Source of the DNA: Syntrophobacterales bacterium
GTDB taxonomy: Bacteria; Desulfobacterota; Syntrophobacteria; BM002
Assembly: GCA_050124835.1 (NCBI GenBank)
Contig: JASFEM010000001.1
Span: 15,280 to 79,279 of the forward strand
Reading direction: 5' to 3'
DNA: 64,000 nucleotides
The notes below the pieces were generated by a model. That model saw only the letters and a program-made list of their open reading frames with translations, made no database searches and was not told the origin of the DNA. The position numbers and the translations under genes are program-made. Shown here piece by piece: positions 7,011 through 39,457 of this stretch (within the stretch, counting starts at the first letter, position 1; each line of letters starts with the position of its first letter).

Positions 7011-7040
7011 ACAGGGTGGAGAGGGAGTTCCTGGAAGAGT

Positions 7041-8681: not shown

Positions 8682-8900
8682 AGCCGAGATTCAGTTACTT
8701 TAGCAAAGAATTATTCCCGATGCGAAACGACGCGGTGACGCGGCGATGCGGTGACACGGAGAAAGGGTGACGAGATCTAATTATCACTCTATCGCCGCGT
8801 CCCCGTGTCTCCCCTTCCCCGTGTCGCCACCTAGCCCAACGAGGCGAGCCGGTTGAGATCCCACTCGCCTGTTGGTGACAATAAACATGGAGAGCCAGGA

Positions 8901-20586: not shown

Positions 20587-21084
20587 ATGATCCTTAGAAC
20601 CTTACGACATAACACAATTTGGGCCAAGATTCTCACTCTTTGCTGCTTCTTTATCTTCTGCCCCAGAGCAGCCTGGGCCCTCCAAACGCACCCGGCCCCG
20701 GAGGGCCTTTATGCTCATATGCTGGCGCACCTCTTCTTTATTGCCACCCTGGGTATATTCACCTACTGGCTGCAGACCACCGGGCTAGTCAGAGAAAGGG
20801 GCTGGCGTCTGATCCAAATCTCCTGCCTCATGTTCATTTTGTGGAATCTGGACACCTTCACGGTTCATTGGATCGAACATACCATGACAAAAGAGATGTT
20901 CATTACCACTGGACTCGACTGGTCACGAAGGCTTGCCTTGACCGGAGGTCTGCGGAGCTGGGTGTATTATTTTGGCAAATTTGATCATTTACTCTGTGTG
21001 CCCGCCATGCTTTTCCTTGTATTTGGCCTACGCGATCTTTATAGAAAAACGGGCACTGAGGGGCTTTCACATCATGAGCAATAG
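20587..21084 (+). CDS. Integral membrane protein (hypothetical, signal peptide plus TM helices), translationally coupled to the downstream histidine kinase.
   Basis: 165-aa hydrophobic ORF. Its stop codon overlaps the ATG of the kinase gene by 11 nt. Confidence 0.6.
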   Translation: MILRTLRHNTIWAKILTLCCFFIFCPRAAWALQTHPAPEGLYAHMLAHLFFIATLGIFTYWLQTTGLVRERGWRLIQISCLMFILWNLDTFTVHWIEHTMTKEMFITTGLDWSRRLALTGGLRSWVYYFGKFDHLLCVPAMLFLVFGLRDLYRKTGTEGLSHHEQ

Positions 21085-22597
21085 TCTCCCCCTCTTTCCA
21101 GTGTGGTTTGTTGATATAGTGGGTTCGGCCCTGATGATCATCATCTCCTTTGTCTGCGTCCGCTACGCCCAATTGCTTCGTCGAACTGACAGAGACAACG
21201 TTATCTGGACTTATCTGCTCTGGCTCTCTTTGGCCTTGGCTCTTTTTTCCGTCTCGCGTTCAGTGGGCCACATTGCTAAACGGTTGCTACTTCTTGCAGG
21301 ACATAGTGACATCTGGGTGGCACTTAGACCTTATAGCGGCTCGATCAACAGCTTGACCTTCGTTATTGCGGGCAGCATAACTCTCTTTTTTCAAAGAGTT
21401 CACCGGATTAATGTCCAGATCCTCCAAGACAAAAAGGCCATCGAAAAAGCGAGTGAAGAACTCAGATGGCTCAACCGAAATTTGGAAGATATGGTACGGC
21501 AGCGCACGCAGGAACTCAGCAAATCCGAGGAAAAGTATCGGCGCATATTCGAAGGATCCATGGACATTATTCTAGTTCTCGACCCGGGAGGCAGATTCTT
21601 GGACATAAACCAGGCCGGGCTCAGTATCCTAGGATATGGGTCAAAGGATGAACTGGCCTCCAGCGCAACCTTTGCTGACATAATTGTCTCACCCCAAAAT
21701 CCTCAACATTTGCTGGAAGAGACCGCGGCCGCCGGCTTCCGCAAAGACCTGGAATGTGAAGTACGGAACCGGGAGGGGGAGATTCGGGTCTGGCTTTTTA
21801 GTTTGACAGTCAGGAAAAAGACCGCGGGGGAGATAGCAGGATTCGAGGGCATTGCCAAGGATATAACCCTTCGTAAGAAGATGGAGCAACAGCTACTCCA
21901 GGCAGATCGGTTAGCCTCGCTGGGAGAGCTTTCTGCCGGTGTGGCCCACGAGGTCAATAACCCTCTTGGCATGATACTTGGCTATACCCAGTTAATGCTT
22001 CGTACCGAGCCGCAGGATACCCAGAATTTTCAGGATCTCAAAACCATTGAAAAACACACACGAAACTGTAAAAAGATTGTCGAGGATCTCCTAAATTTTG
22101 CTCGTAACGCGGAAACCCAAAAGGGGCGACTTGACATCAATGAACTTCTCCGGGAAGTTGTCTCGGTGGTAGAGCACCAATTTAAACTGGACAACGTCGC
22201 CATAGAAATCCAGCTTGACACCTCTGTTCCCACGCTCTGGGCCGACGGCGAGAAACTGAAGCAGGTGTTCATGAACCTCTTGATGAACGCTAAGCAGTCC
22301 ATTGCTACCTCAGGGCGTATCCAGATTGGTACAAGCCATGATTCGTCTGAAAATAAGATCGTCGTCACGGTGGCTGACACAGGTTCGGGCATAGATCCTG
22401 AAATTTTGGACAAGATTTTCGATCCCTTTTTTACCACCAAACCCACCGGACACGGCACTGGTTTGGGGTTGTCGGTGAGTTATGGTATCGTCAAAGATCA
22501 CCATGGCGACGTAGTTGTCCAAAGTACACTTGAAAAGGGGAGTATATTTACTGTCTTCCTACCCATCGACGGGGAGGGTAGTGAAGAAGCTTGTTGA
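21074..22597 (+). CDS. PAS-domain sensor histidine kinase (membrane-anchored).
   Basis: N-terminal TM segments, a coiled coil, a PAS-like region, the HisKA motif [16 protein letters not shown], and HATPase_c motifs DTGSGI and GTGLGLS. Confidence 0.88.
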
Positions 22598-22670
22598 GAC
22601 ATATCGCAAAAGGAATAGGACAGCCTACGGGGACCTGTAGTCTCTGTGAAAGCCAGCCTAAAACGTTATT

Positions 22671-24074
22671 ATGACTGAAGAGGTAAAAGACAGACTGCTC
22701 GTTGTTGATGATGAGACCGACATGCTTCATTTACTACAGCGAAGTATTCGTCAAGACCTCGATTGTGAAATTGATACGGCTACCTCCGGGAAGGAGGCCC
22801 TGAGATTGCTCGAGAGGAAAAACTATGATTTGGCCCTGGTGGACATTCGGATGTCTGGAATGGATGGCATTGAACTGCTCGAGCGTGTCAAACAGATCAA
22901 CCCTTGGATGACCGTAGTGATGATGACCGCTCATGGAGTGGTGGAGCTGGCAGTTAAATCCATCAAAAAGGGCGCGTACGATTTCATCACCAAACCATTT
23001 GATCATGCGGAACTCATCCACCTGCTGCGCAAAGCCTTGGAGCGTAGTCAGCTTCTCCGAGAGAATCTGAATCTTCAGCGGCGGATTAAAGAGAGAGAGC
23101 CGTTTGAGAATCTGGTCGGTCGCAGCCAAGCCATGCAGCGAGTCTACCAGACCATCCAGATGATAGCCAAAACCGATGTTACTGTTCTCATCACCGGAGA
23201 ATCCGGTACTGGCAAGGATCTGGCGGCCAGGGCAATCCATGCTCTTAGTCATCGCTCTGACCAGTCCTACGTAACGGTGAACTGTCCCACCCTGCCGGAA
23301 AATATTCTGGAAAGCGAACTCTTTGGCTACAAGAAAGGCGCATTTACCGATGCCAGCAGTGACAAGATCGGACTGTTTGAGGAAGCCCGGGGTGGTACGA
23401 TTTATCTAGATGAAATTGGTGACATCGCTCCGACCATTCAGACCAAACTGTTGAGGGTGCTCCAGGAAAAAGAGATCAAACCCTTGGGTCAGACCAAATC
23501 AATCAAGGTGGATGTCAGAGTTGTTGCCTCCACCAATCGTGAGCTCAAAGAAAAAATTCGTAATCAGGAGTTCAGAGAAGATCTCTTTTACCGATTAAAT
23601 GTGCTTACGGTTCACATGCCTCCCTTGCGAGAACGCAAGGAAGACATTCCCCTCTTAGCTGAACACTTCCTTAAATACTACTGCGAGGAGTTCGGCAAAC
23701 CGTCCAAATCTTTATCCCCGGAGCTCATGGATTTACTTTTGCGGCGGAACTGGGAGGGCAACGTCAGAGAACTGGAAAACATAATCAACCGAGCAATTCT
23801 TCTTTCGACTGGGGATGTTATCAAGCCTTACGAAATAGGCTGGACTGCTGAGGTATCTGATAGCTGCGTGGTGGGAAGGGAGATTCAAGGGATGCATTAC
23901 AAAGCGGCGAAGGAGGAGGTACTTCACCGCTTCCACGCTGAGTATTTGGGAGATCTTCTGCGCCGCAACAACGGAAATGTTACCCATTCAGCCCGCGAAT
24001 GTGGACTGGAAAGACAGGCCCTGCAACAAATAATGAGACGCTACGGTCTCAAATCTCAAGATTTCCGCTCCTAG
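22671..24074 (+). CDS. Sigma-54-dependent response regulator (NtrC/AtoC family: receiver, AAA+ and Fis-type HTH).
   Basis: Receiver LVVDDE...D, Walker A GESGTGKD, GAFTDA, ESELFGY, and a C-terminal HTH. Confidence 0.92.
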   Translation: MTEEVKDRLLVVDDETDMLHLLQRSIRQDLDCEIDTATSGKEALRLLERKNYDLALVDIRMSGMDGIELLERVKQINPWMTVVMMTAHGVVELAVKSIKKGAYDFITKPFDHAELIHLLRKALERSQLLRENLNLQRRIKEREPFENLVGRSQAMQRVYQTIQMIAKTDVTVLITGESGTGKDLAARAIHALSHRSDQSYVTVNCPTLPENILESELFGYKKGAFTDASSDKIGLFEEARGGTIYLDEIGDIAPTIQTKLLRVLQEKEIKPLGQTKSIKVDVRVVASTNRELKEKIRNQEFREDLFYRLNVLTVHMPPLRERKEDIPLLAEHFLKYYCEEFGKPSKSLSPELMDLLLRRNWEGNVRELENIINRAILLSTGDVIKPYEIGWTAEVSDSCVVGREIQGMHYKAAKEEVLHRFHAEYLGDLLRRNNGNVTHSARECGLERQALQQIMRRYGLKSQDFRS

Positions 24075-27102: not shown

Positions 27103-27124
27103 TTTGCGGAATAAACGCTTCCCT

Positions 27125-27823
27125 ATGATTCAGAAACCAATTCTTATTGTGGAAGACGATAAAAAGACCGCTTCACTAGTAGAACTCTATCTGCAGCGGG
27201 AAGGGTTCCAGACTGTTCTCGCTCTTGATGGTCGGGAAGCTCTGGAACTGGCTCGGCGTTACAACCCCATGCTTGTGGTTCTCGATCTTATGCTTCCCCT
27301 TGTCGATGGCTGGGAAGTCTGCCGGGAGCTCAGGAGTTGGTCGGATGTTCCTATCCTCATGCTCACCGCCAGAGGGGAAGAGGTGGACCGCATTTCGGGG
27401 CTGACATTGGGAGCTGATGATTATGTGGTGAAACCCTTCAGTCCACGGGAACTGGTGGCAAGGGTGAAAGCCATTCTCAGAAGAGTTCGTTCGGACACCA
27501 CTGCCAAAAGGACTGTCTGGTCACATAAAGATCTGGTTCTGGATCTGGATAAGCGCAAGGTGAGTTTAAGCGGGCGAGCAATTTCACTTACCGTTCATGA
27601 GTACAACCTCCTCAAAGCCTTGATGACCAGGCCCGGAAGGGTTTTTACTCGAGCAGAACTTCTGGACCGGCTTTATCCAGACGGTGAATCAGTAATAGAC
27701 CGCGTCATCGACGTCCATATTGGAAAGCTCAGGCAGAAGATCGAAAAGGACTCGTCGCGGCCTCGCCACATTCTCACGGTAAGAGGCATAGGATATCAGT
27801 TTGCCGAGGAGAGCGATTCATGA
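27125..27823 (+). CDS. OmpR-family response regulator (receiver plus winged helix).
   Basis: ILIVEDD, DLMLP and a trans_reg_C-like C-terminus. Confidence 0.9.
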   Translation: MIQKPILIVEDDKKTASLVELYLQREGFQTVLALDGREALELARRYNPMLVVLDLMLPLVDGWEVCRELRSWSDVPILMLTARGEEVDRISGLTLGADDYVVKPFSPRELVARVKAILRRVRSDTTAKRTVWSHKDLVLDLDKRKVSLSGRAISLTVHEYNLLKALMTRPGRVFTRAELLDRLYPDGESVIDRVIDVHIGKLRQKIEKDSSRPRHILTVRGIGYQFAEESDS

Positions 27824-27839
27824 ATGGGGGGATTGGGCC

Positions 27840-28925
27840 GTGACAAATCGAATCCTCTGGAAACTACTCGGGATTAATATCCTAGTCATTGGATTCGTTA
27901 TCATTATCGTATGGCTGGCGGTTGACTACCTCGCCGCCGGCTACTTCATGACTTTGATGGAGAAATACAATATCTCACCAACATCCAGCCACCAAATGTT
28001 CGTGAGCGCCGTTCACCGCTATTTGGTCTGGGCCAGTCTCGGCGCTCTTGTGCTGGCTGTTGGGTTCAGCTTCTTGCTCATGCGAAGAATTTTGCATCCT
28101 CTCACCCAGATGACTGAGATCACGAGCAAGATCGCATCTGGCAATTACTCAGCCAGCGTCCCTGTGAACTCTCAAGATGAAGTTGGCCGGTTGGCGCTTG
28201 CCTTTAACCGGATGGCTGAAAGTCTTCAGATGATTGAGCAACTACGGAAGACGATGATGATCGACGTGGCCCATGAGCTCAGGACTCCCCTAACCAACAT
28301 CAGAGGGTATCTCGAGGCCCTGACTGATGGCGTGGTCAGCCCCTCTGAGGAGACCTTCGAGTTGCTTCAGGAGGAGACCCTCCGGTTGGTACAATTAGTG
28401 GAAGATATCCTTCGGCTGGCCAAAGCTGACGCCGCCAAGGCAAGCCTTCGTCAAGTAGAGATCCATATTGTCGACCTGATTAAGCAAATGCTCGACTCGT
28501 TTCGTCCCCAACTCGAAGAAAAAGGGATCAGGCTGGAGACTCATTTTGCGAATGGCGAAAAAACCGTTTGGGCCGATCCCCACCATTTGTCGCAGGTGAT
28601 ACAAAATTTCCTGCAAAACTCCTGGCAGTATACTCCGTCAGGTGGAACGGTCACGGTCTCAACTGAGCTGATGCCAAGAGCGATCAAGGTTGTTTTTGCC
28701 AACACCGGTGGAGAAATAGCCGAAGATGATCTTCCCTATATATTCGAGCGTTTCTATCGAGGGGAAAAGTCTCGCTCGCGGGAGCACGGGGGTGCTGGCA
28801 TCGGTTTGGCCATAGTCAAAGAACTGGTCGAGGCCCACAGCGGCTCCGTCGGCGCTGAAATGCTCGCCGGTAGCATCCAGATCTGGTTTGAGCTTCCTTT
28901 GGACTCCCCGCGGAGGATAGATTGA
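27840..28925 (+). CDS. Sensor histidine kinase (TM-HAMP-HisKA-HATPase_c), partner of the OmpR-type regulator.
   Basis: HAMP, H-box VAHELRTPL and G-boxes. The GTG start at 27840 is inferred. The ORF track opens with TTG at 27801. Confidence 0.85.
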   Translation: MTNRILWKLLGINILVIGFVIIIVWLAVDYLAAGYFMTLMEKYNISPTSSHQMFVSAVHRYLVWASLGALVLAVGFSFLLMRRILHPLTQMTEITSKIASGNYSASVPVNSQDEVGRLALAFNRMAESLQMIEQLRKTMMIDVAHELRTPLTNIRGYLEALTDGVVSPSEETFELLQEETLRLVQLVEDILRLAKADAAKASLRQVEIHIVDLIKQMLDSFRPQLEEKGIRLETHFANGEKTVWADPHHLSQVIQNFLQNSWQYTPSGGTVTVSTELMPRAIKVVFANTGGEIAEDDLPYIFERFYRGEKSRSREHGGAGIGLAIVKELVEAHSGSVGAEMLAGSIQIWFELPLDSPRRID

Positions 28926-29107: not shown

Positions 29108-30298
29108 ATGAAACCGTTATATATGATAATCATCGCCCTGGTATTGGTCCTCTTGGTCTACCATCAGGTCACTGGAGAAATGGAAAAACAGATTCAGGAT
29201 AAACCCGAGAACACCAAGGAGGCATATTTTGCCGGCGGCTGTTTCTGGTGCACCGAAGCCGATTTTGAGAAAGTTGACGGCGTCATCGACGCTATCTCGG
29301 GTTACACTGGGGGCAACATTGCCAATCCCACCTACAAGCAGGTCTCCAAAGGCGGAACCGGGCACGTGGAGGCCGTGAAAGTGGTATACGACCCCACCAA
29401 GGTCACCTATGAGGAGTTGCTCGAGGTGTTCTGGATGCATGTGGATCCCACCGATGGAGACGGACAGTTTGTGGATCGCGGCTCCCAGTATCGTAGTGTT
29501 ATCTTTTACAGTAACGAACAAGAGCACCGTTTGGCTGAAGCCTCTAGGAAACGATTGGCGGCTTCGGGCCGCTTCGACAAGCCGATAGCGACCGATATCC
29601 TTCCGCTGGGCCCCTTTTACCCGGCTGAGGACTACCACCAGGATTACTACAAAAGAAATTCCATCCGCTACCGCTGGTACCGTCACGGCTCTGGCCGGGA
29701 CCAATTCCTGAAAAATGTATGGGAAGACAAGGAGTCAGATATGAAACCGCAAGCCAAAAAGGTTGAGATGGAAGATGAAATAAAGGAGAGTCGAATGAGC
29801 GCTGACAAGATAAAAGAAAAGACCGACGCCCGTATGGCATCTGACATGGAAGCCGGCCGGATGTACAACCGTCCCGGCGAGGAAGAGCTGCGTCGGCAAT
29901 TGACGCCCATGCAATACAAGGTCACCCAAAAAGACGGTACGGAGCCACCCTTCAAAAACGCTTACTGGAATAATCACGAGATGGGCATCTACGTGGACAT
30001 TGTCTCGGGGGAGCCTCTTTTCAGCTCGAAGGATAAGTTCGACTCTGGTACGGGCTGGCCCAGCTTCACCAAGCCTTTGGAGCCAGATAATATAGTGGAG
30101 AAGACGGACCGGAGTTTTTTTATGACTCGTATCGAGGTACGGAGCAAGCATGGCGACTCGCACCTCGGTCATGTATTCAACGACGGCCCCGAGCCCACGG
30201 GTCTGCGCTACTGCATCAACTCGGCCGCCCTAAGATTCATTCCCGAGTCGGACTTGGAAAAGGAAGGCTACGAAATATACCGGAAGCTGTTCGAGTGA
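29108..30298 (+). CDS. msrAB: Bifunctional peptide-methionine sulfoxide reductase MsrA/MsrB fusion with an N-terminal membrane anchor.
   Basis: MsrA GCFWC motif and MsrB motifs (CINSAAL, HLGHVF). Confidence 0.92.
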
Positions 30299-30920: not shown

Positions 30921-31277
30921 GTGGCCAAATCACTCGTGTTGCATGAAGAATCTGATTGTCGTGAACTGATCAAGAGGGTCCTGCTAGAGAACGGCCATGA
31001 AGTGGTTGCTTTCGATGAGCCGGAAGAGGCCCTCGCCTGGACGCGTTCCAACCCCGTGGATCTGGCTATCGTTAGCTTGGAGTCGAGTGTAAGTCAGAAT
31101 GACGTTTGGCAGCAACTGAAACATTTTAACAAGAATCTCAAAATCCTTATCCTGACTAGATTCGCCGCTAAAGATTCGGCCAAGAGGGCGCTGGAAGAAG
31201 GCGCCGATGATTATCTCCTCAAGCCTATCGACATAGAGGCATTGGAAACCAAGGTAAAAAGCCTGAAAGAAGACTAA
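30921..31277 (+). CDS. Stand-alone CheY-like receiver with an atypical acidic pocket (DD replaced by HE). It has a GTG start.
   Basis: 118 aa. SLVLHEESD, VDLAIVS, ILILT and LLKP receiver landmarks. Paralog of the receiver at 39092-39457. Confidence 0.6.
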   Translation: MAKSLVLHEESDCRELIKRVLLENGHEVVAFDEPEEALAWTRSNPVDLAIVSLESSVSQNDVWQQLKHFNKNLKILILTRFAAKDSAKRALEEGADDYLLKPIDIEALETKVKSLKED

Positions 31278-31476
31278 TCTCGTTCGGTATTTGATGACTA
31301 GTACAGCTTGATATAGTTGTCTATTTAATCGTTGGTATCGTCTGCACTGAATTGGGTGCAATTTTAGCAATTAAATATTTGAAACTTAGTCAATGAAATC
31401 GAAAAAGTTTTATAGGAAGGAGGTGTCAGTCGTTCTTTTTTTGTTCCCATATTATAAAACAATGAAGGAGGAAACC

Positions 31477-33168
31477 GTGAAGAAAGTATCTTTCGTATTG
31501 ACCCTATTGATTGTCGGAATTGCCCTCATGGCTGCGGTTCCCAACAGCGCCCTGGCAGCAGCAAAAATCTCTGCTACCGAATATAAAGTTGGGGATACTG
31601 TCACTATAGAGGGAAGCATCGAGCCCGGCAAAGATCTCTACGTCACCGTAGTCTCGCATACCACGTTTGCACCTAAAGACACGGATGGTGTACACGAGGT
31701 GGCTCGGCTCAAGAAAGAGGCCCAAAAAAGAGGCTTCACCAATGAGACTAGGATACCTGTCTTTTATTACCTGCTAACCTCCAATCCCTCGCAATTTGGA
31801 AAGGTTACCAAGAAAAAATTTGGTGGGCCATCCTTCCTGCCGGGACTCTACAGCACAACCATGTTCAAGCTGGCAAAGTTTGACCAGCTTGATGCTGAGG
31901 CCAAGAATGTTTTGGGCCCCATCAAAAGCAAAGATGAGTGGAATTTCTTCAGATTCGCCCACGAATCTGCCTATGGCATCAACACCATTACCAAGGAAGG
32001 AGCCAAGAGAGGAAAAATCGTAATATTTGCCCGTAGTATCCTGGGAGATTACGGCACAAGCAAGAATTACTGGGACAAGGGCACGTCAGTTCAGTTGGAC
32101 AAGAGCACTGGAAAATTCACGGCCTCTTTCAAAACTTTCCGTCACACCCCGCCTAACAGCAAGTTTGACGTCTATGTGAACGGTGCCAAGGCCGGAACAT
32201 ATAACTTGCAGCCGAAAGGCTTCTGGCTGAGCAGGGGTTACCGTTACATGAACCCGATCATAATCACACTCGGCGCCATTGTTGTTGGTATTTTCTTCAC
32301 CATGATCGGCGCCGCCGGCGGCATGCTCATGGCGGCCTATCAGGTCATCGTTGTTCAGACCGCCGGTCCTATCGGCATTAACGCTGCCAACGTGCTGCGC
32401 TCATCGAACATAGCTTTGACCCTGTTCGCGCCACTGGGCGCTTTTTACCGGTACGCTGTGGTGGAGAAGCGGGTTGCCTGGCCTGTTGGTATCTCTTTTG
32501 GTGTGGGAATTTTGATCGGCTCCATCTGGTTGGGGAAATATGCAACTGCATACCTGCCCATGAAAAGCTATAAGGAGTGGTTGGCGGTTCTGGTTGTGAT
32601 CATGGGTATCAGAACCCTTTATGAGCTCACACCCAAGGTCATGGAAAAGAGGAAAGCCATCAAAGCGATGGTCAAAAAGTTTAATGAAGAGGTTGCACGG
32701 GCAAAAGCTGAAGGGCGCGCCGTTGAAATGGGTAAAATTGAAACGGTTAAGACCGGTCTTACTAGTTATCATTTCAAGTTTTGGGGTGAAGACTTCAGTA
32801 TTAACCCATTGCTCTTCGGTATCCTTGGCATAGTAATCGGGATAGTCTCTCGCTCGTTCGGTATCGGCGGCGGCTTCCTATTGGTGCCCGCCATGACCAC
32901 CCTGGGTGCTCTGCCCATGTACGTGGCCGTGCCTGTTGGGCTGATTGGTACTTCCTTCAGCAGCATCGGTTCCTTTATCGGCTACGCCATGAACAGGTAC
33001 TGGCCCGACTTGTGGATATTCATTGCCGTTATCATTGGTGGCTTTGTCGGGGGCATGCTTGGCAGTCGCTTCCAGAAGCTTTTCAGTGAGAGAGTCCTGA
33101 AGTGGGTGTTGGCAATTACCCTATTTTTCCTTTTCTTCCGCTTTTTCAAGATCGAAATCTGGATCTAG
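31477..33168 (+). CDS. TauE/SafE (DUF81) family membrane transporter fused to a roughly 270-aa N-terminal secreted domain of unknown function.
   Basis: An AAGGAGG RBS precedes the GTG start, giving MKKVSFVLTLLIVGIALMAAVPNSALA. An Lys-rich soluble domain is followed by two TauE-type 4-TM repeats with Gly-rich motifs (GAAGGMLM, GIGGGFLLVP). Confidence 0.7.
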   Translation: MKKVSFVLTLLIVGIALMAAVPNSALAAAKISATEYKVGDTVTIEGSIEPGKDLYVTVVSHTTFAPKDTDGVHEVARLKKEAQKRGFTNETRIPVFYYLLTSNPSQFGKVTKKKFGGPSFLPGLYSTTMFKLAKFDQLDAEAKNVLGPIKSKDEWNFFRFAHESAYGINTITKEGAKRGKIVIFARSILGDYGTSKNYWDKGTSVQLDKSTGKFTASFKTFRHTPPNSKFDVYVNGAKAGTYNLQPKGFWLSRGYRYMNPIIITLGAIVVGIFFTMIGAAGGMLMAAYQVIVVQTAGPIGINAANVLRSSNIALTLFAPLGAFYRYAVVEKRVAWPVGISFGVGILIGSIWLGKYATAYLPMKSYKEWLAVLVVIMGIRTLYELTPKVMEKRKAIKAMVKKFNEEVARAKAEGRAVEMGKIETVKTGLTSYHFKFWGEDFSINPLLFGILGIVIGIVSRSFGIGGGFLLVPAMTTLGALPMYVAVPVGLIGTSFSSIGSFIGYAMNRYWPDLWIFIAVIIGGFVGGMLGSRFQKLFSERVLKWVLAITLFFLFFRFFKIEIWI

Positions 33169-33184
33169 AGGACTGACAAAAAAA

Positions 33185-33218
33185 TGGGAAGGGGAAGGAG
33201 CAGTTTCCTTCCCCTTCC
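33185..33218. terminator. Perfect 14-bp-stem hairpin (GGGAAGGGGAAGGA...TCCTTCCCCTTCCC), possibly a bidirectional terminator.
   Basis: The inverted repeat is read directly. A-rich sequence lies on one side and T-rich sequence on the other. Confidence 0.5.
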
Positions 33219-33241
33219 CAAAAAAGAAAGAGTTAACTGAA

Positions 33242-33886
33242 ATGGAAGAATTTCTAGATACTTTGTGGTTTAGAATAGAAGTCTTAATTGATTATCTGAG
33301 AAGCTTTCTTGATTTCTTATTCGGCCCTCTCAATTCTTTGGGGCCGGCCGTTGCCATAGCAACGATGGCCTTGATCACGGTTGCAGTAACAAAGTACTTT
33401 ACCAAGAAGTTTAAAACCAAGCGATACAGAGAGTTAAAAAAGGAGTTTGCCCATTGGTACAATGTCCGTCAAGAGGCGACAAGATGTGAAGATTACGAAA
33501 AAGGAAAGCTTCTTGCCAAAAATATAGACAGTGCCAAGTTAAACAAGGTCTATTACGACTTCTTTCTTGAGGGGCTTTTGAACAATGTCTTAACGATGTA
33601 TTTACCCATTTTACTTGTTTTGGCTTATGTCAACGAGACTTACAACAGTGCTCATTTACTCAAGCTATTTGGGCGAGAATATGTATTCAGGCTCTGGAGC
33701 TTTAATGGAGACACGCTCGCTGTGGGAGCTGCTTTCTGGTTTGTCCTTTCCCTTTTGCTCATTTATCTGTGCTGGTTCATAGTAGAAAAGATATATGTAA
33801 AATTTGTAGTTGAAAAAAGAAACAACCGGGTACCGTATTGGGGGGCGAAGAGCCAGTTTTATGAGCAGTATCGTGACGCAGGCTAA
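33242..33886 (+). CDS. Hypothetical membrane protein (214 aa). TM segments flank a charged coiled-coil segment.
   Basis: Hydrophobic segments with a KKFKTKRYRELKKEF charged stretch. No confident family assignment. Confidence 0.5.
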   Translation: MEEFLDTLWFRIEVLIDYLRSFLDFLFGPLNSLGPAVAIATMALITVAVTKYFTKKFKTKRYRELKKEFAHWYNVRQEATRCEDYEKGKLLAKNIDSAKLNKVYYDFFLEGLLNNVLTMYLPILLVLAYVNETYNSAHLLKLFGREYVFRLWSFNGDTLAVGAAFWFVLSLLLIYLCWFIVEKIYVKFVVEKRNNRVPYWGAKSQFYEQYRDAG

Positions 33887-34544: not shown

Positions 34545-35297
34545 ATGTCCTGGTTCCTGCTCATGCCTATCATCTTTGCGAGCTCGCTTGTTCTCACCAT
34601 GGTGGGCCTAGGGGGTGGGCTCATCTTCTCCCCCCTATTTGTTCTCCTTTCCTTCCCGGTCTCCACGGCGGTCTCTGCCTCTCTTTTTCTGAACGGCATC
34701 GCTGCTCTGTCCGCGGCCATTACCTATTTTCGCAAGAAAATGATAGACGTGCAGGTTGGGGGGCCCCTCATCCTTGCCTCAGCCCTGGCCGCTCCTCTGG
34801 GTGCGCTTACCACCTCCAGGGTAAATATCAAGATCTTTACTGCCATTCTGGCAGGGGTGATCTTTCTGGCTTCTCTGCGCATGCTCTTCTCAGGCAAAAT
34901 AGAGGCTGCGACTGAGGAGGTCGGTACCAGGAGGAGGGTCATTGGCGGTGGTGCCATTGGCTTGGTTATTGGCTTCATGGCAGGGCTTCTAGGAATCGGT
35001 GGTGGGGTTTTCATTGTCCCCTTACTGATTTACATCTTGAGGGTACCCACAAAGATCGCGGCCGCCACCTCCATCTTTATCGTGGTCTTTTCCTCATGTA
35101 GCGGCTTCATTACCCATGCGTCTTTGGCTAGGGCCGACTGGAATTTCATCTTGGTGGCTGCCTGCTTCTCCTTTGCCGGCGGTCAGGTGGGCTCGCGAAT
35201 CATGGCAGAGAAGCTCAAAGGAAGGACCGTGCGGAGGCTCTTCGGAATTGTGCTCTTGGCTTTTGCCTTTAAGCTGATTCAGCGGGTGTGGTGGTAA
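34545..35297 (+). CDS. TauE/SafE (DUF81) family membrane transporter (sulfite/anion exporter family).
   Basis: 250 aa with duplicated 4-TM repeats carrying GLGGGLIFSPL and GIGGGVFIVPLL motifs. Confidence 0.85.
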   Translation: MSWFLLMPIIFASSLVLTMVGLGGGLIFSPLFVLLSFPVSTAVSASLFLNGIAALSAAITYFRKKMIDVQVGGPLILASALAAPLGALTTSRVNIKIFTAILAGVIFLASLRMLFSGKIEAATEEVGTRRRVIGGGAIGLVIGFMAGLLGIGGGVFIVPLLIYILRVPTKIAAATSIFIVVFSSCSGFITHASLARADWNFILVAACFSFAGGQVGSRIMAEKLKGRTVRRLFGIVLLAFAFKLIQRVWW

Positions 35298-35323: not shown

Positions 35324-36457
35324 TCATTTGGAGGAGTTCAGATATTCGAAGTACTTCTGGACAAATTTTCCCGAAACCGCATCTGCCAGCGTGAAGACGA
35401 GTCTCCTTTCGACTGCATTAGACGTGGTGAGGGCGTGAAACATATTCTCAGAAGTCCTAGCCAGTACTGCATCCACTTGATCATAGTCGAGCCTGGCACC
35501 ATCTGCCGCCACCTCACCTTGATCAGCAAAGATTCGGACCTTACCCTCATGGGAAACAGGTAGGCCATAGAGCCTACACGCAGTCGGTCGTATGGGGTAT
35601 ACGGTACATCTGGAGTTAACATTAAGGGGGCACCTTATCTCTTCTTGAGCATATATCTCAGCGAACTTGTGCGAATCATCCTTAGTTTCGCTACCAGCCC
35701 GCAGCCTTTTCTCAAGATCTCCAATCTTTTTCGACACTCCCACCGCCCGTTGGATCGCCTCCTTGCGCTCAGTGCTGGTGAGGTGAAGGCTCATCTTGTG
35801 GTTTAGATAGGCCGCTTCTATAAACTGAAGATCAACCGGTCGGTAGCAGCACGCTTCACTTTCCAGACCGCAACTCAAGAGTCCCCCACCGGTGGTTTCG
35901 GCAGTTCTCTGAAACGCATGATCAATGAGATTTAAGAGAGTTTCATACTCTTGGAAGTACGGGTTCAAATCAGCGATGGGTCCGTTATCCAAAGAAGGTT
36001 GCCGGAATTCTAAGGTCCCAGCCTGCTTGTGGTATTTTCTCAACAATCGCCACTGAGAGAAACTACTGGAGACAGCCCGCGTTTCCTCGACCCTCTTTCT
36101 GGCCAGCTTCAAGCCATATCCTTTTCGAAGCAGATAGGCCATAACAAAGGTCGCTGTTCTGCCAATCCCAAAACGGCAATGGACGAGAACCTTCTTTCCC
36201 AGATAAAGGGCCTCGTCCAGCCAATCCAGCGCCTTTTCAAGCTCATCCATAGAAGGCACTTCATTATCGCAGGTGGGCAGATAGTACACTTCAAAGTCAT
36301 ACTCTTTTTGAATTTCATGAAGATTACAGAATTCTCCACATAGGTTCACAATAGCATTGATCCCTTGTTGTCTCATTGATTCCATTTCTCCATGAGACAA
36401 GGGAGCGTGGCCGAGACCAAGGCTCTCTGTCAACCAGGAAATGAGATAATCTGTCAT
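35324..36457 (-). CDS. Dual-specificity protein phosphatase domain fused to a YkgJ/UPF0153 (CxxCxxCC) putative Zn/Fe-chelating domain.
   Basis: DSP signature VLVHCRFGIGRTATF (HCxxGxxR). The C-terminus has CGLESEACCYRP...CPLNVNSRCTVYPIRPTACRLYG. Confidence 0.75.
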   Translation of the reverse strand: MTDYLISWLTESLGLGHAPLSHGEMESMRQQGINAIVNLCGEFCNLHEIQKEYDFEVYYLPTCDNEVPSMDELEKALDWLDEALYLGKKVLVHCRFGIGRTATFVMAYLLRKGYGLKLARKRVEETRAVSSSFSQWRLLRKYHKQAGTLEFRQPSLDNGPIADLNPYFQEYETLLNLIDHAFQRTAETTGGGLLSCGLESEACCYRPVDLQFIEAAYLNHKMSLHLTSTERKEAIQRAVGVSKKIGDLEKRLRAGSETKDDSHKFAEIYAQEEIRCPLNVNSRCTVYPIRPTACRLYGLPVSHEGKVRIFADQGEVAADGARLDYDQVDAVLARTSENMFHALTTSNAVERRLVFTLADAVSGKFVQKYFEYLNSSK

Positions 36458-36470: not shown

Positions 36471-39038
36471 TCATCTTCGCTGCAATGGGCTGAAATCGTA
36501 GATGCCGTTCATAAATCTTTCAATCAGTTCTTCCACCTGCGAACCATCTTTCAGAGACATATCCAGCACTCTGGTGCATCCCAGCAGTTGTCCCAATACC
36601 TCTAGTTTGGCCTCCAAGGTTTGGCGGTCATTTCTGCTCAGTTGAGCATCAATCATATCGCCCTTTTTTTCAACTTTAAAGCCATGGTGTGACAAAATGC
36701 CTTCCAGGAATTTCAGCCTCAAGAACTTCGAGTACAAATCACCACCTCCACCGGCAAACCTTAGCATAATATAGTTTTCGTCAAGCTCATGGCCGCAAAG
36801 GGTATCGAGAACTACAAAATGAAAGCCAAAATGGATATTGAAGTTAAGGTAGTCATGGGAAAGAATTGCATAACTGCCCAAGAATTTGGATTCTGGCCGG
36901 ACAACACTATCACTGCTACTAATTCTGGCGAACTCCTGCCAATCGTAATGCCTCACATTAGGGTCCCAGTATATCCCAGGATTACTGAGGCCCTTCCACA
37001 GTGCTTTTAGTGGAATGTTGGTAATATCGTTGAGCTCAATTTCTTTCTTAGTGCGCGCTTCCTCAACAAGGCCACCACCAAGGTCGAGCAAATAAATTAT
37101 TATAGGTATCTCTGAAATCAGTCTTTTTGCTCCTGCGGCCCTTCTGCTTCCCTTGTCACCCAACAAAAACATCTGTTGGATGGATTTTTCGTGGGCAAAT
37201 CTGAGGATATCATGTAGGCTCTCACAGCCCTCGGGCGCAAAAGCCTCCGCGAGAGGATCTACCAGGTTTAGGGGCGAAATGTCGCTGAGAATCTTTTCCA
37301 TGCTCACCATGAAGGGGCTGTCTGTCAAAAGGGATCTCACGGAACATGCACTTCCCACTAGCTGCTCAACTATACCTTCGTATACAATCTTGGCTTCCGC
37401 GTAGACAGTGACCTCTTGTCCTGAAGTGAGGCTGTTCATGGCCACGCCTGTGTTTACCAATGTAGGAATGCCGAACTCTCTGGCCACCGAGGCGAAGTGC
37501 CCTGCCGTGCTGCCCACATCCGTTATCACTGCACTTATTTTCCCCACCACTTTGACCAAATCGGGGGACGGCACCTTGGCCACCACGACTGCCCCTTGCG
37601 GGAGGCTCTCTAAATCTTTCGATCTCTCTACTTTGTAAACTTCACCAGCAGCGATGCCTCCGCAAGCGCTATTCCCACCAGACAACAACACCCGGCTATC
37701 CACCTCAATATTGCTACAGTCAATTTTCTGCTGATCCTTATCTTCAATATGGAGAGGTCTGGACTGCAGAATGAAAAGCTTGCCCTCGTTGTCCATGCAC
37801 CATTCGATGTCTTGAGGGGTTCCTTGAAAGTCTTCCAGTTTGGTTGCCCATTCCATCAACTCGAGAGCAGACTGATCATCCAGGGCCAGATTCGCCGGCA
37901 AGTCATCCACCCCAGAGACTACTTGAATACCGCCTTTCTTAAGTGGAACCGCTTTCACGGGCTGAAATATCTCCTTGTCTCGCTCAAGCTGGTGGGGTGG
38001 TTCCCTCGTCACCCTGATAACGCTGGGGGTAACGCTGCCGTCTACAAGCAACTTCCCCAAACCCCATATGGAATGGATAGCCAATGTGCCACCACCAGTC
38101 TCCTCAGGATCGAGCGTATATATCACCCCGCTCACCCCGGCATCAATCATCTCCAAGACCAATACTGCCATGGGAGTCTCTCGGTCAGACAGCCCGTAGT
38201 TGATACGGTAATTGAGTGCCCGAGGTGAATACTTACTGGCAATGACTTCTTTATAAGCGTCAACGATTCTATTCGGTTGCACATTAAGAACCGACTCGTA
38301 CTGCCCAGCGAAAGAGGCCGCGCTGTCCTCGCCAACAGCACTACTGCGTACTGAGACCCGAAGTCTCCCAACTTGGTCCCCGCTGATCTCTTTGAGCGCA
38401 GTGCTGATTTCCTCTTCTATTGCCTTCGGGACTCGGGCTAATTGAATGAGTTTCACCAAATCCTCTGAGGTTTTCTCCACTGAACTGGCAGAATTGAGGT
38501 CGAGTTGAGCCAGCCGCTCATCAATCTTCTCGCGGAGGTTGTTTTCCTCTATTAAATAGTTAAATGAGTTGGCAGTAACGACAAAGCCTCTCGGCACCGG
38601 TAAGCCCAACCCTTTACGCACCGTGGCCAAATTGAACGCTTTACCGCCAACCAACAGGTGGCTGTCTGTACCCAGTTCATCAAGTGTTAGAGTGAAAGGC
38701 GGAGAGAAGTCATAGGAACTGGGGGCCAAAACTTGTTGTATCCTCTGGTCTATGGCGCGGAAGCAATCATCAAGTTTTGGATAGCAGGTGGGGCATATTT
38801 CGCTGAGCGACTTGACAACTTTCGTAACAGACGAGGACAGCTGCTTGCATTTGTGCTCTATTGCGGCAAAATCGACTTTGAGCTGCTCGTAGTAGATCTG
38901 CTCCAACTCGGCGATCAGTTCATGGCTTTTTTTGTCGTGCTCCAGCAAATTCCTGAATGCTTCATATTTCTCCTGAACCAGAAGGCCAGGAGCGAAGATT
39001 TTGTACGTCCAGTGTTTAAATAGATTAGCAACGTACAT
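36471..39038 (-). CDS. PEP-utilizing-enzyme-family dikinase (PpsA/PPDK-like): ATP-grasp domain, phospho-histidine swivelling domain, and a non-canonical 300-aa C-terminal domain.
   Basis: 855 aa. PPDK_N-like region (GGKAFNLATV...SVRSSAVGEDSAASFAGQ), then a mobile His domain (GGNSACGGIAAGEV...GSTAGHFASVAREFGIPTLVNTG). The C-terminal third lacks PEP/pyruvate TIM-barrel motifs. Confidence 0.8.
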   Translation of the reverse strand: MYVANLFKHWTYKIFAPGLLVQEKYEAFRNLLEHDKKSHELIAELEQIYYEQLKVDFAAIEHKCKQLSSSVTKVVKSLSEICPTCYPKLDDCFRAIDQRIQQVLAPSSYDFSPPFTLTLDELGTDSHLLVGGKAFNLATVRKGLGLPVPRGFVVTANSFNYLIEENNLREKIDERLAQLDLNSASSVEKTSEDLVKLIQLARVPKAIEEEISTALKEISGDQVGRLRVSVRSSAVGEDSAASFAGQYESVLNVQPNRIVDAYKEVIASKYSPRALNYRINYGLSDRETPMAVLVLEMIDAGVSGVIYTLDPEETGGGTLAIHSIWGLGKLLVDGSVTPSVIRVTREPPHQLERDKEIFQPVKAVPLKKGGIQVVSGVDDLPANLALDDQSALELMEWATKLEDFQGTPQDIEWCMDNEGKLFILQSRPLHIEDKDQQKIDCSNIEVDSRVLLSGGNSACGGIAAGEVYKVERSKDLESLPQGAVVVAKVPSPDLVKVVGKISAVITDVGSTAGHFASVAREFGIPTLVNTGVAMNSLTSGQEVTVYAEAKIVYEGIVEQLVGSACSVRSLLTDSPFMVSMEKILSDISPLNLVDPLAEAFAPEGCESLHDILRFAHEKSIQQMFLLGDKGSRRAAGAKRLISEIPIIIYLLDLGGGLVEEARTKKEIELNDITNIPLKALWKGLSNPGIYWDPNVRHYDWQEFARISSSDSVVRPESKFLGSYAILSHDYLNFNIHFGFHFVVLDTLCGHELDENYIMLRFAGGGGDLYSKFLRLKFLEGILSHHGFKVEKKGDMIDAQLSRNDRQTLEAKLEVLGQLLGCTRVLDMSLKDGSQVEELIERFMNGIYDFSPLQRR

Positions 39039-39091: not shown

Positions 39092-39457
39092 TCAGTCTTG
39101 ACCTGCCAAGACTTTTTCCACTTTCTCTTCTATTTCATCAATGTCGATAGGCTTAATGAGGTATTCATTCGCTCCGAGAGTAAGCGCTTCCCGGGCTGAC
39201 TCTAGAGTAGGATAACCGGTGAGCATTATCACCTTCATGTGTGGGTCTATTTTCTTTAGCTCCTCGAGGACTTCAATCCCAAGAATCTTTTTTAGTCTAA
39301 TGTCAAGAATTGCCAGATCGACCTTATTTGTCCTGGCATGGCCAATTGCTTCCTCTTCCTCAGTAAAAGAAAGAACCTGATGGCCTTTCTCCACAAGAAT
39401 CCTTTGGAGCAGGATAACCGCATCCGGTTCATCATCGAGTACAAGAATGGTGGCCAT
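39092..39457 (-). CDS. Stand-alone CheY-like response regulator receiver.
   Basis: 121 aa with ILVLDDEPD, DLAILDIRL, IMLTGY and LIKP. Confidence 0.88.
   Translation of the reverse strand: MATILVLDDEPDAVILLQRILVEKGHQVLSFTEEEEAIGHARTNKVDLAILDIRLKKILGIEVLEELKKIDPHMKVIMLTGYPTLESAREALTLGANEYLIKPIDIDEIEEKVEKVLAGQD

Follow-up and report, generated by a model that had tools for sequence, protein, structure and literature searches.

The nitrate cluster and related systems

The Desulfovibrio 'nitrate cluster' (DVU0251-DVU0245), the mutant phenotypes of which were published by Korte et al. 2014 (PMC4001038), is made of genes encoding, in the order, TauE, a hypothetical protein, a PtxB-like protein, a histidine kinase, a response regulator (360 bp), a dikinase and a dual-specificity phosphatase, or DSP (1110 bp) (PMC4001038). 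In D. vulgaris, nitrate resistance arises upon mutation of the genes for TauE, the binding protein, the response regulator and the dikinase (PMC4001038). The DSP mutant remains nitrate-sensitive, with a fitness of -6.04 (PMC4001038). The dikinase and DSP mutants differ in sign, as they should if the phosphatase works against the dikinase. A simple antagonism of the two is however poorly fitted, because the mutant in the DSP homolog of D. alaskensis G20 has a positive nitrate fitness (+2.08), like mutants in the other cluster genes (PMC4001038). DVU0245, a protein of 369 aa, is annotated only as a tyrosine/dual-specificity phosphatase, and the cysteine domain described below is unmentioned (PMC4001038). 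Few genetic determinants of nitrate resistance in sulfate reducers are as strong as this cluster, which bears on the control of oil-field souring. The cluster has been without a biochemical explanation since 2014, and no follow-up biochemistry was found in the literature searched by locus tags and by the term 'nitrate cluster'.

Pairs made of a dikinase and a DSP acting on one substrate are known from plant glucan water dikinase and SEX4/LSF2, and from laforin. The genes described here likewise encode a His-swivel dikinase and a DSP-fold phosphatase carrying an accessory domain, and would follow the same one-target logic. They differ by having a cysteine cluster as the accessory domain, no carbohydrate-binding module and the genomic context of a two-component system. 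Homology to the glucan enzymes is limited to the catalytic folds.

Organization of the locus

The window, i.e. the whole stretch of 64,000 nucleotides analysed here, hosts an operon encoding a response regulator (RR), a dikinase and a protein in which a DSP is fused to a cysteine-rich domain (hereafter DSP-Cys). Genes encoding TauE-family proteins are found close to it. The genes are the following:

31393..33886, forward strand: large TauE-family protein with a periplasmic domain at its N-terminus (591 aa; Pfam TauE) followed by a 214-aa membrane protein, possible cluster members
34545..35297, forward strand: permease of the TauE/SafE family, transcribed convergently to the DSP gene, possible cluster member (Pfam TauE, 164.5 bits)
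35324..36457, reverse strand: whole DSP-Cys fusion gene, a single ORF of 377 aa plus stop codon
36471..39038, reverse strand: PpsA-like dikinase, 855 aa, identified by its Pfam domains, adjoining the DSP gene
39092..39457, reverse strand: 121-aa receiver-only response regulator, with which the RR-dikinase-DSP operon begins (Pfam Response_reg, 94.9 bits)

Promoter, terminator and Rfam scans around the operon revealed nothing over background. The RR-dikinase-DSP genes and the TauE genes correspond to a partial nitrate-cluster set. The likeness to the nitrate cluster (DVU0245/Dde_0605) concerns both gene set and order, and includes the TauE permease, a small hypothetical membrane protein, the PtxB/PhnD-like binding protein, the PAS histidine kinase, the receiver-only regulator (119-121 aa), the PPDK-like dikinase and the DSP (~360-377 aa). 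The window operon differs for the lack of an adjacent binding protein and sensor kinase, neither of which was found beside it, and for a different arrangement of the permease genes. The whole nitrate-cluster order is matched at loci L087, L088, L037, L093 and others. The last of those named, from Oceanidesulfovibrio marinus, bridges the nitrate cluster and the DSP-Cys module family. The window gene is apparently orthologous to DVU0245, as indicated by the order and sizes of the genes and by the occurrence of the family in Desulfovibrionales, where the P-loop and both cysteine motifs are kept in 112 of 119 orthologs.

Components missing beside the window operon are found at other loci. At least 26 of the 80 species loci have a PhnD-like protein and a sensor kinase next to the module, and in 43 of the 80 it is adjoined by response regulator orthologs, 60-75% identical. 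The phospho-acceptor residues of the regulator (D8, D9, D52 and T/S80) are retained in all of the 66 orthologs. Linkage of TauE to the module is moderate, a TauE-family gene being present in 15 of the 26 loci with full 10-kb flanks; the pair formed by the 591-aa TauE-family protein and the 214-aa membrane protein is also found in L007, L032, L059, L089 and L090. The initial annotation had paired the phosphatase with the neighbouring dikinase, and had missed the response regulator, the sensor kinase and the binding protein. Because these three are linked to the pair, the locus is better described as a signalling module than as a metabolic pair.

The phosphatase domain

The ORF starts with ATG and has no internal stops. 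The identical protein (P0001) is found in NCBI, JGI and Logan, and its record is named 'MAG: dual specificity protein phosphatase family protein [Syntrophobacterales bacterium]'. The homologs retrieved at full length exceed 120 and are 45-100% identical; in every one of them the DSP and the cysteine halves are encoded by one ORF, as initially proposed for the window gene. The protein was modelled with AlphaFold2 (pLDDT 85, pTM 0.82); matches of the full-length model to PDB entries, searched with Foldseek, are confined to the DSP domain. The parts of the protein, all encoded by the reverse strand, are:

36026..36457, reverse strand: dual-specificity (Cys-based PTP-fold) phosphatase domain, residues 1-144 (Pfam DSPc, Foldseek and PDB sequence matches)
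36266..36268, reverse strand: Asp64, putative general acid, within the motif LPxxDxxxP (conservation and phmmer alignments)
36155..36181, reverse strand: P-loop HCRFGIGRT, residues 93-101, with catalytic Cys94 and Arg100 (invariant residues)
35966..36025, reverse strand: interdomain linker, residues 145-164 (low pLDDT)
35327..35965, reverse strand: cysteine domain of the YkgJ/CxxCxxCC type, residues 165-377, into which a helical hairpin is inserted (profile homology)
35846..35872, reverse strand: N-terminal cysteine motif C196-G-x5-C203-C204 (invariant)
35573..35632, reverse strand: C-terminal cysteine motif C276-P-L-x5-C284-x5-R-P-x2-C294-R (invariant)

Residues 25-144 match Pfam DSPc (PF00782) at 59.2 bits, the gathering cut-off being 33.5, and DSPc is matched in 18 of the 18 family members tested. 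The P-loop stretch, VLVHCRFGIGRTATF, spans residues 90-104, and the tract H93-C94-R-F-G-I-G-R100-T101 fits the form HCx5R(S/T). Across 62 homologs sharing 45-84% identity, no variation is seen at D64, H93, C94, R95, G97, G99 and R100. In the LPxxDxxxP motif, P61, D64 and P68 are invariant. Asp64, on a loop about 30 residues ahead of the catalytic Cys, is taken to be the general acid from what is generally known of PTP-fold enzymes; phmmer aligns it with the Asp residue that 25xa_A and ShufPTP have in their corresponding motif, lP.pDf.aP. The N-terminal half, where the DSP P-loop had initially been noticed, is a genuine Cys-based DSP with invariant catalytic residues.

The top PDB sequence matches of the domain are 25xa_A, ShufPTP and Tk-PTP. 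The modelled fold resembles those of ShufPTP, Tk-PTP and SsoPTP (Foldseek target-normalised TM-score 0.75-0.84, E down to 4e-8). These small archaeal/bacterial Cys-based PTPs (Tk-PTP 5z5a, SsoPTP 2i6i/7mpc, ShufPTP 9e9l, 25xa) are alike in fold and 26-28% identical to the DSP domain, with which they share the HCxxGxGR(T/S) P-loop and an Asp-containing acid-loop motif. They are single-domain proteins of ~150 aa, whereas DSP-Cys has an additional cysteine domain of 213 aa. Moreover, DSP-Cys features an invariant Arg right after the catalytic Cys (HCR), unlike these enzymes.

The cysteine domain

Residues 142-158, at the linker, have a pLDDT below 50 in the AlphaFold2 model. The linker sequence is conserved despite the low pLDDT, and includes a REPSLE motif. 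The cysteine motifs highlighted in the initial annotation were located downstream: CGLESEACC corresponds to residues 196-204 and CPLNVNSRC to residues 276-284, and C294 follows. All six cysteines (C196, C203, C204, C276, C284, C294) are invariant, and the two groups are parted by a helical hairpin of ~55 residues. The second group has the CP(L/F)...C..Y..RP..CR form, as C276-P-L...C284..Y..R290-P291..C294-R295 is invariant.

Assignment of the domain to the YkgJ/UPF0153 family, suggested at first reading, holds by homology but not by direct match. The Pfam PF03692 score is under the threshold of 23 bits both for the whole protein (19.3 bits) and for the domain alone (20.8 bits), and the match is partial, covering positions 29-69 or 41-69, respectively, of the 85 positions of the profile. 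The 29-69 match falls on the C-terminal cysteine motif. A PF03692 signal was obtained for 10 of the 18 family members tested, always under threshold. A profile built on the cysteine domain (A4) found 2494 proteins, among which stand-alone proteins of ~215 aa and proteins with multiple copies of PF03692. The stand-alone relatives are matched over nearly the whole length of the profile (E from 1e-36 to 1e-16), and 9 of the 10 tested exceed the PF03692 threshold; in the multi-copy proteins PF03692 scores 59-95 bits at the same residues. The domain can be regarded as of the PF03692 type because its profile retrieves proteins exceeding the PF03692 threshold.

The CxxCxxCC motif is one cysteine short. 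Stand-alone relatives have C-x3-C-x2-CC where the fused clade has C-G-x5-CC, and the cysteine located three residues ahead of the CC pair is absent throughout the fused clade, which has not retained the four-cysteine motif. The domain is of the YkgJ type but divergent, one cysteine of its N-terminal motif having been lost. Common to YkgJ/FliB/UPF0153 (PF03692) proteins are the CP(L/F)-x-C-x-Y-x-RP-x2-CR motif and the homology, domain-wide, to the stand-alone ~215 aa proteins. The differences are the sub-threshold Pfam score, the replacement of C-x3-C-x2-CC or CxxCxxCC by C-G-x5-CC, the ~55-residue hairpin between the cysteine groups and the fusion to a phosphatase. In FliB, a cysteine motif of the PF03692 type carries an O2-sensitive [4Fe-4S] cluster (PMC8598068). 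By likeness to FliB, the domain probably binds metal, putatively as Fe-S. Metal binding and metal type are not assured, because the N-terminal motif of the fused clade has three cysteines rather than four.

No solved structure was found for any relative of the cysteine domain. Regular expressions detected no canonical C..C..CC protein in the window and in 86 loci, and no stand-alone paralog of the domain was found in the fetched loci; the genomic surroundings of the stand-alone relatives P0258, P0277 and P0268, on contigs of 1-2 kb, are uninformative. Comparison by hhalign of the family HMM to an E. coli YkgJ-like sequence, scoring 45 bits by Pfam, gave only a local match of 24 residues with a probability of 10%, too little to settle family membership.

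Distribution of the fusion

The fusion is encoded in at least 419 species genomes, nearly all belonging to the Thermodesulfobacteriota. The nitrate cluster emerges from this survey as a widespread, tightly conserved signalling module, the phosphatase of which bears a previously unnoticed YkgJ-type cysteine domain. No description of a DSP-CxxCxxCC architecture was found in the literature searched, including searches for CxxCxxCC with phosphatase, for DSP-PTPase, and for dikinase with DSP and response regulator. The initial impression of an undescribed architecture stands in this respect. It must be corrected in others, since the architecture is common, is automatically annotated by JGI as 'protein-tyrosine phosphatase/Fe-S-cluster containing protein', and mutants of the Desulfovibrio cluster have been published. 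For the uncharacterised YkgJ/UPF0153 superfamily, the fusion provides a defined partner and context. At locus L089 a 159-aa DSP lacking the cysteine domain adjoins the dikinase. The cysteine domain is therefore dispensable in one lineage.

The partner dikinase

The dikinase consists of a family-specific N-terminal region of ~115 aa, a PPDK_N ATP-grasp domain (PF01326, 272 bits), a swivelling His domain (PF00391, 54.8 bits) containing His514, and a C-terminal domain of ~300 aa. His514 and the surrounding GS(T)AGHF are conserved. The ATP-grasp nucleotide-binding and swivelling phospho-His domains are common to PpsA/PPDK enzymes. The partner dikinase differs from these for the lack of the PEP/pyruvate TIM barrel, the place of which is held by a matchless alpha/beta domain of ~300 aa, and for the extra N-terminal ~115 aa. 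Alignments to PpsA end at residue 569, no Pfam match to the barrel (PEP-utilizers_C) was obtained, and NCBIfam scores are all far under the cut-offs. The C-terminal domain is modelled by AlphaFold2 as an alpha/beta structure with an antiparallel sheet, at a moderate pLDDT (65); no relatives were found among Pfam families, PDB sequences or Foldseek matches, the best PDB fold having E 0.03. The missing PEP/pyruvate barrel shows that the dikinase is no PEP synthase, and its substrate is not pyruvate. The "pyruvate phosphate dikinase" of the nitrate cluster cannot hence be a PEP or pyruvate enzyme. A PEP synthase coupled to a PSRP/PDRP-type regulator was also considered, and rejected: the TIM barrel is missing, and the DSP does not belong to DUF299.

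In the window the dikinase stop codon is located 13 nt ahead of the DSP start codon. In 72 of the 80 species loci the dikinase gene is found directly upstream of DSP-Cys, on the same strand; the gap has a median of ~24 nt. When the check was made from the dikinase side, the linkage held in 3 of 3 cases. In two independent lineages dikinase, DSP and cysteine domain make up one natural polypeptide, a point added by the present analysis (P0246, 1252 aa; P0254, 1205 aa). In L001, L009, L037 and L082 the dikinase is not adjacent, and the response regulator gene sits directly before the DSP gene. The suggestion that DSP-Cys is the cognate phosphatase of the dikinase is very strongly backed by linkage; action on the dikinase product is only presumed.

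Proposed function and alternatives

The likeliest function of DSP-Cys, to which we give about even chances, is that of the off-switch phosphatase arm in a conserved, two-component-controlled dikinase/phosphatase module shared by sulfate reducers and related Thermodesulfobacteriota. In its complete form the module comprises a periplasmic PhnD/PtxB-like oxyanion-binding protein, a sensor histidine kinase of the sCache/PAS type, the receiver-only regulator, the PpsA-like dikinase and DSP-Cys, and often adjoins a TauE-family anion permease. The sensor kinase would phosphorylate the response regulator, which in its phosphorylated form may govern the dikinase through protein-protein contact. The dikinase is predicted to load the swivelling His514 from ATP, and to hand the phosphate to a substrate held on its unique C-terminal domain. 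The DSP domain, through Cys94, Arg100 and Asp64, would strip this phosphate and reset the switch. The six-cysteine YkgJ-type domain may, like the [4Fe-4S]-binding motif of FliB, hold a metal centre, and either gate the phosphatase by redox, iron or sulfur status, or help to hold the substrate; the structural model is consistent with the cysteine domain packing against the phosphatase domain. The output is probably the activity of a TauE-type permease, plausibly meaning traffic of sulfur oxyanions. From such an output the change in nitrate sensitivity upon loss of the Desulfovibrio counterparts would follow. The model is concrete and testable, and the D. vulgaris mutants already exist.

A bolder formulation is tentative, and unlikely to hold. 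It sees in the module a new type of two-component output, in which the receiver-only regulator would turn on a His-swivel dikinase, acting as a protein or signalling-metabolite kinase through an unprecedented substrate domain, a Cys phosphatase gated by Fe-S would turn it off, and a TauE sulfur-oxyanion permease would be set in this way. If true, this would be the first signalling role in bacteria for a dikinase of the PEP-synthase type, and the first Fe-S-regulated phosphatase with a PTP fold.

Proteins of the pathway may themselves be the target of DSP-Cys, be it a regulatory phosphate of the dikinase (on the Ser/Thr before His514, PDRP/PSRP-like), the phospho-His or the response regulator. 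This we hold unlikely. The fusion proteins place DSP and dikinase on one polypeptide, the conserved GS(T)AGH has a Ser/Thr near the catalytic His, and the opposite phenotypes of the DVU0245 and DVU0246 mutants fit this explanation equally well. The response regulator, in addition, is the most conserved component (60-75%), and directly precedes the DSP at the four loci named above, where the dikinase is not adjacent. Known PPDK/PpsA regulators, on the other hand, are of a different family (DUF299), and no Cys-based PTP-fold enzyme is known to act on phospho-Asp or phospho-His, which also argues against a target of this kind. A metabolic role of the pair looks rather improbable. Dikinase and DSP would in this case phosphorylate and dephosphorylate a small molecule or a polymer, similarly to glucan water dikinase and SEX4/LSF2 or to the PFK-2/FBPase-2 control. 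Non-barrel dikinases do phosphorylate small molecules or polymers elsewhere (rifampicin phosphotransferase, PigC/RedH; NCBIfam partial matches), and kinase-phosphatase fusions, typical of enzymes setting the level of a signalling metabolite, also count in favour of this role. However, Pfam detected no carbohydrate-binding module or other ligand domain in either protein, the neighbours are signalling and transport genes rather than metabolic enzymes, and the P-loop HCRFGIGR departs from C-x-A-G-x-G-R, the signature of glucan phosphatases. An analogue of the glucan-dikinase/glucan-phosphatase system specifically was rejected, both for the lack of carbohydrate-binding modules and for the wrong P-loop signature.

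The off-switch model leaves to the cysteine domain a regulatory or substrate-holding part. Improbable, in our opinion, is that the domain is itself catalytic, as an Fe-S enzyme comparable to FliB, a methyltransferase, or to the phage candidate DpdM, in a bifunctional protein carrying out a second chemical step on the same substrate after dephosphorylation. Superfamily relatives with an assigned activity are only enzymes: FliB transfers methyl groups in a [4Fe-4S]-dependent manner (PMC8598068), and DpdM/DUF3109 is a candidate preQ1 methyltransferase (PMC10516641). The domain itself is large, with 213 aa, shows good conservation and is modelled with a confident fold. Yet the fused clade has lost a cysteine of the N-terminal motif that the FliB cluster requires, a DSP-only variant is found beside the dikinase, and Pfam revealed no SAM-binding motif and no methyltransferase family. 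Similarities to toxins were also noted. The Pfam model Tc-R-P (PF22785), a 'polymorphic toxin system' DSP model, scores 55.6 bits, and NCBI names the ortholog P0438 of Desulfobulbus alkaliphilus 'phosphatase domain-containing putative toxin'. A phosphatase of the toxin or defence type is nevertheless extremely improbable, and was rejected on genomic context: immunity genes, secretion domains or a mobile-element context are missing, and the synteny with the two-component system is chromosomal and stable in more than 400 species. The DSPc model, moreover, fits the domain better than the toxin model.

The DSP-Cys gene and its dikinase partner

The DSP-Cys protein, a dual-specificity phosphatase (DSP) followed by a cysteine (Cys) domain, is encoded by the third and final gene of a minus-strand operon of three genes:

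39092-39457, minus strand: receiver-only response regulator, first operon gene
36471-39038, minus strand: dikinase of 855 aa, second operon gene
35324-36457, minus strand: DSP-Cys protein of 377 aa, single ORF with an ATG start

The ATG of the latter lies 13 nt past the dikinase stop codon, which is overlapped by a GAGG-type ribosome-binding site. Both halves are in one reading frame, as initially annotated, and the motifs quoted then are all present (VLVHCRFGIGRTATF, residues 90-104; CGLESEACC, 196-204; CPLNVNSRC, 276-284, followed by C294). The protein is 100% identical to a record found in NCBI, JGI and Logan, named 'MAG: dual specificity protein phosphatase family protein [Syntrophobacterales bacterium]'. 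The Pfam DSPc model matches residues 25-144 with 59.2 bits (gathering cut-off 33.5). An alignment of 62 full-length homologs sharing 45-84% identity shows no variation at the catalytic residues (H93, C94, R100), at D64, the putative general acid, or at the six cysteines of the C-terminal half (C196, C203, C204, C276, C284, C294). The AlphaFold2 model derived from this alignment is confident (pLDDT 85, pTM 0.82). It features a DSP domain (1-144), followed by a linker modelled with low confidence (142-158); the C-terminal domain (165-375) is well folded and mainly helical. The modelled DSP part superposes on MKP5 and on small archaeal and bacterial PTP-fold enzymes, with target-normalised TM-scores of 0.75-0.84 for ShufPTP, Tk-PTP and SsoPTP; a PDB sequence search agrees with these structural matches.

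The link to the neighbouring dikinase, proposed on position alone, holds across the family. The dikinase gene is found directly upstream of the DSP gene, on the same strand and at a median distance of about 24 nt, in 72 of 80 species loci; of the other loci, 3 have it at another place and 5 lack it within 10 kb. Reciprocally, the DSP gene is directly downstream of all three dikinase homologs checked. In two clusters of the representative library sharing less than 50% identity, represented by P0246 (1252 aa) and P0254 (1205 aa), PPDK_N, PEP-utilizers, DSPc and Cys domains are joined in a single polypeptide. The P0246 ORF is continuous on its contig (locus L087, 6001-9759). The linkage is thus tight, fusion proteins included. 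The L087 fusion gene is preceded by genes encoding a PhnD-like protein, a sensor kinase and a response regulator, as well as by YeeE-like (Sulf_transp), TusA and Se/S-carrier genes.

A reduced variant is found in L089 (GCA_019308175.1, 3876-4355), where the DSP measures only 159 aa and lacks the Cys domain, and the dikinase has no response regulator before it. The locus is syntenic with the window (dUTPase, MBL-fold gene, dikinase, DSP, membrane protein, TauE). The Cys domain is therefore accessory to a more basic dikinase-DSP partnership.

Distribution and annotation

Homologs of the window protein, including those matched via either half, form 1345 clusters at 90% identity. Relatives are encoded by at least 419 species-representative genomes, nearly all Thermodesulfobacteriota, of orders including Syntrophobacterales, Desulfobacterales, Desulfobulbales and Desulfovibrionales, cultured strains among them. 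Many have already been named 'protein-tyrosine phosphatase/Fe-S-cluster containing protein' by the JGI pipeline. The initial annotation regarded the fusion as an undescribed architecture: neither the DSP-YkgJ fusion nor its altered cysteine motif was found in the searchable literature, but the architecture is common, and carries a name in databases. The Desulfobulbus alkaliphilus ortholog (P0438) is denominated 'phosphatase domain-containing putative toxin' by NCBI, probably because it resembles the polymorphic-toxin DSP model of Pfam. The conserved setting among two-component-system genes speaks for a misleading name, and a toxin role for the DSP-Cys protein is very unlikely.

The Cys domain

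Assignment of the C-terminal half to the YkgJ/UPF0153 CxxCxxCC family stands in part. The direct PF03692 score is 19.3-20.8 bits, below the Pfam threshold of 23; the match is limited to the second half of the model (CPL..C..Y..RP..CR), and is found, still sub-threshold, in only 10 of 18 family members. The family HMM similarly gives a local match of only 24 residues with an E. coli YkgJ-like sequence. A 217-position profile (A4) of the domain was searched against 1.84 billion representative proteins, and yielded 2494 matches at E <= 1e-3. Beyond the DSP-fused clade, these include many stand-alone proteins of about 190-300 aa, aligned across almost all of the profile (E 1e-36 to 1e-16), of which 9 of 10 tested pass the PF03692 threshold. 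In larger proteins hosting two or three PF03692 copies (59-95 bits), A4 matches the same residues. Because A4 retrieves both sets, the Cys domain is, as judged by profile homology, a genuine though divergent superfamily member. At the N-terminal motif, column-by-column comparison reveals C-x3-C-x2-CC in stand-alone relatives and C-G-x5-CC in every DSP-fused protein; one cysteine has therefore been lost. No solved structure was found among Cys-domain relatives.

Multi-copy proteins such as P0279, P0324 and P0349 (740-786 aa), and P0368, P0375 and P0387 (503-524 aa), consist of PF03692 domains in tandem, two or three per protein, with nothing else recognisable, and are an uncharacterised architecture of the same superfamily. 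A4 also matched P0287 (472 aa), an NtrC-type regulator with receiver and sigma-54 AAA+ domains, whose last ~140 residues fit the C-terminal two-thirds of the profile and replace the DNA-binding domain; P0287 might be either a genuine novel fusion or a chimera produced in assembly.

The dikinase

ATP-grasp and swivelling His domains are clear in the window dikinase, the latter with a conserved His514 (GS(T)AGHF motif). Similarity to PpsA stops at residue 569; for the last ~300 residues no Pfam, PDB-sequence or Foldseek match was found, and a model of moderate quality depicts an alpha/beta domain with an antiparallel sheet, not a TIM barrel. NCBIfam scores are all far under the cut-offs. The enzyme lacks a PEP/pyruvate domain, which, with the end of PpsA similarity, rules out a PEP synthase; the substrate is therefore other than pyruvate.

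Signalling and transport genes

The response regulator is the best-conserved component of the module (60-75% identity). It adjoins the module in 43 of 80 loci, and directly precedes the DSP gene where the dikinase is non-adjacent. D8, D9, D52 and T/S80 are kept in 66/66 orthologs examined. The domain identities of the module proteins are clear, and all parts are catalytically competent at the sequence level.

In at least 26 of 80 loci, the regulator has as flanking genes those of a periplasmic binding protein resembling PhnD/PtxB and of a histidine kinase with sCache and PAS domains. In L037 the former (6318-7457) matches phosphonate/phosphite binding-protein models, and is weakly similar to the tetrathionate sensor TtrS, in its periplasmic part, as well as to a putative selenate-binding protein, a likeness consistent with the sensing of a sulfur or related oxyanion. 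The cognate kinase (7488-9584) hosts at residues ~225-285 a cytoplasmic motif with seven cysteines, CW..M.C.....CPA[YH]......CWY.AGT.C..C...(11-12)...C..C, conserved in about 34 orthologs from other loci. The motif is placed between the PAS domain and the membrane/HAMP region, and may be equivalent to the 'two-CW domain' of NCBI. It is a second cysteine-rich element of the pathway, and possibly senses metal or redox state.

Of the 26 loci with full flanks, 15 encode a TauE-family permease no more than 10 kb away. The corresponding region of the window includes:

30921-31277, plus strand: second receiver-domain protein, 118 aa, ~40% identical to the operon regulator
31393-33168, plus strand: TauE-family permease, 591 aa
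33242-33886: membrane protein, 214 aa, following the 591-aa TauE gene
34545-35297: TauE-family permease

In addition to a signal/TM segment, the 591-aa protein carries an extra domain of ~250 aa at the N-terminus, which in the L089 homolog corresponds to DUF8269 (precomputed Pfam entry). The 118-aa protein, encoded directly upstream, lacks the phospho-acceptor residues (S stands in place of D52, HE in place of the DD pair) and is therefore a pseudo-receiver; orthologs 71-72% identical are found in L007 and L008, and receiver genes also adjoin TauE in L089 and L090.

The Desulfovibrio nitrate cluster

A 'poorly annotated' cluster was described by Korte et al. (2014) in D. vulgaris Hildenborough (DVU0251-DVU0245) and D. 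alaskensis G20 (Dde_0597-0605) (PMC4001038). It encodes, in order, a TauE-like permease, a conserved hypothetical protein, a PtxB-like periplasmic protein, a PAS histidine kinase, a receiver-only regulator (360 bp), a 'pyruvate phosphate dikinase'-like protein and a tyrosine/dual-specificity phosphatase, DVU0245 (1110 bp, 369 aa) (PMC4001038). Gene content and order are complete in Oceanidesulfovibrio marinus (L093), and likewise in L037, L087 and L088. Among 119 Desulfovibrionales orthologs of the DSP-Cys protein, 112 retain the P-loop and both cysteine motifs. Synteny, gene sizes and family distribution lead us to infer that the window protein is orthologous to DVU0245. The 214-aa membrane protein is a possible counterpart of the 'conserved hypothetical' DVU0250, but it resembles the O. 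marinus equivalent only marginally (27% over 70 aa, E 0.04).

D. vulgaris became resistant to 100 mM nitrate when transposons disrupted the genes for the permease, the binding protein, the regulator or the dikinase, and the DVU0245 mutant remained sensitive (fitness -6.04); the G20 DSP homolog scored +2.08, in the same direction as the remaining cluster (PMC4001038). The authors could not assign functions, and proposed a leaky thiosulfate transporter (PMC4001038). No later biochemical study of the cluster was found in the literature search.

Proposed role of the module

The best-supported reading is that of a signalling module. The oxyanion-binding protein and the sensor kinase would provide input to the receiver-only regulator; this would control the dikinase/phosphatase pair, presumably acting on the dikinase. 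Both enzymes would work on one common target, the DSP reversing the phosphorylation made by the dikinase, and the target plausibly governs the TauE-type permease, the activity of which would be the output. Dikinase-DSP antagonism is favoured because the D. vulgaris mutants show opposite phenotypes; the result for the G20 DSP homolog does not favour it. Alternatively, the DSP might act on the dikinase or the regulator themselves, or the substrate of the pair might be a small molecule or a polymer.

Within the signalling module, the Cys domain would bind an Fe-S or Zn centre, and modulate or target the phosphatase. Its sole biochemical precedent is FliB, which carries an oxygen-sensitive [4Fe-4S] cluster in a related motif (PMC8598068); by analogy with FliB or DpdM, the domain might instead be catalytic.

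Both folds, DSP and YkgJ-type, are already known, and the cluster had already been seen genetically. The non-barrel dikinase, the dikinase-DSP-Cys triple fusions, and the breadth and tightness of the module were not found in the searchable literature. An unexplained genetic result is hereby turned into a testable mechanism.

Other genes close to the module

Two further two-component systems are located upstream of the module on the plus strand (20972-24074 and 27104-28925). One pairs a PAS kinase with an NtrC-type regulator, the other a HAMP kinase with an OmpR-type regulator; the cognate sCache kinase of the module is orthologous to neither. A fused MsrA-MsrB methionine sulfoxide reductase, with a hydrophobic segment at its N-terminus and a linker that is long and charged, is encoded near the module in the window (29108-30298, plus strand), in L003 (3194-4045) and in L007 (8888-10084), a proximity which hints at an oxidative-stress context.
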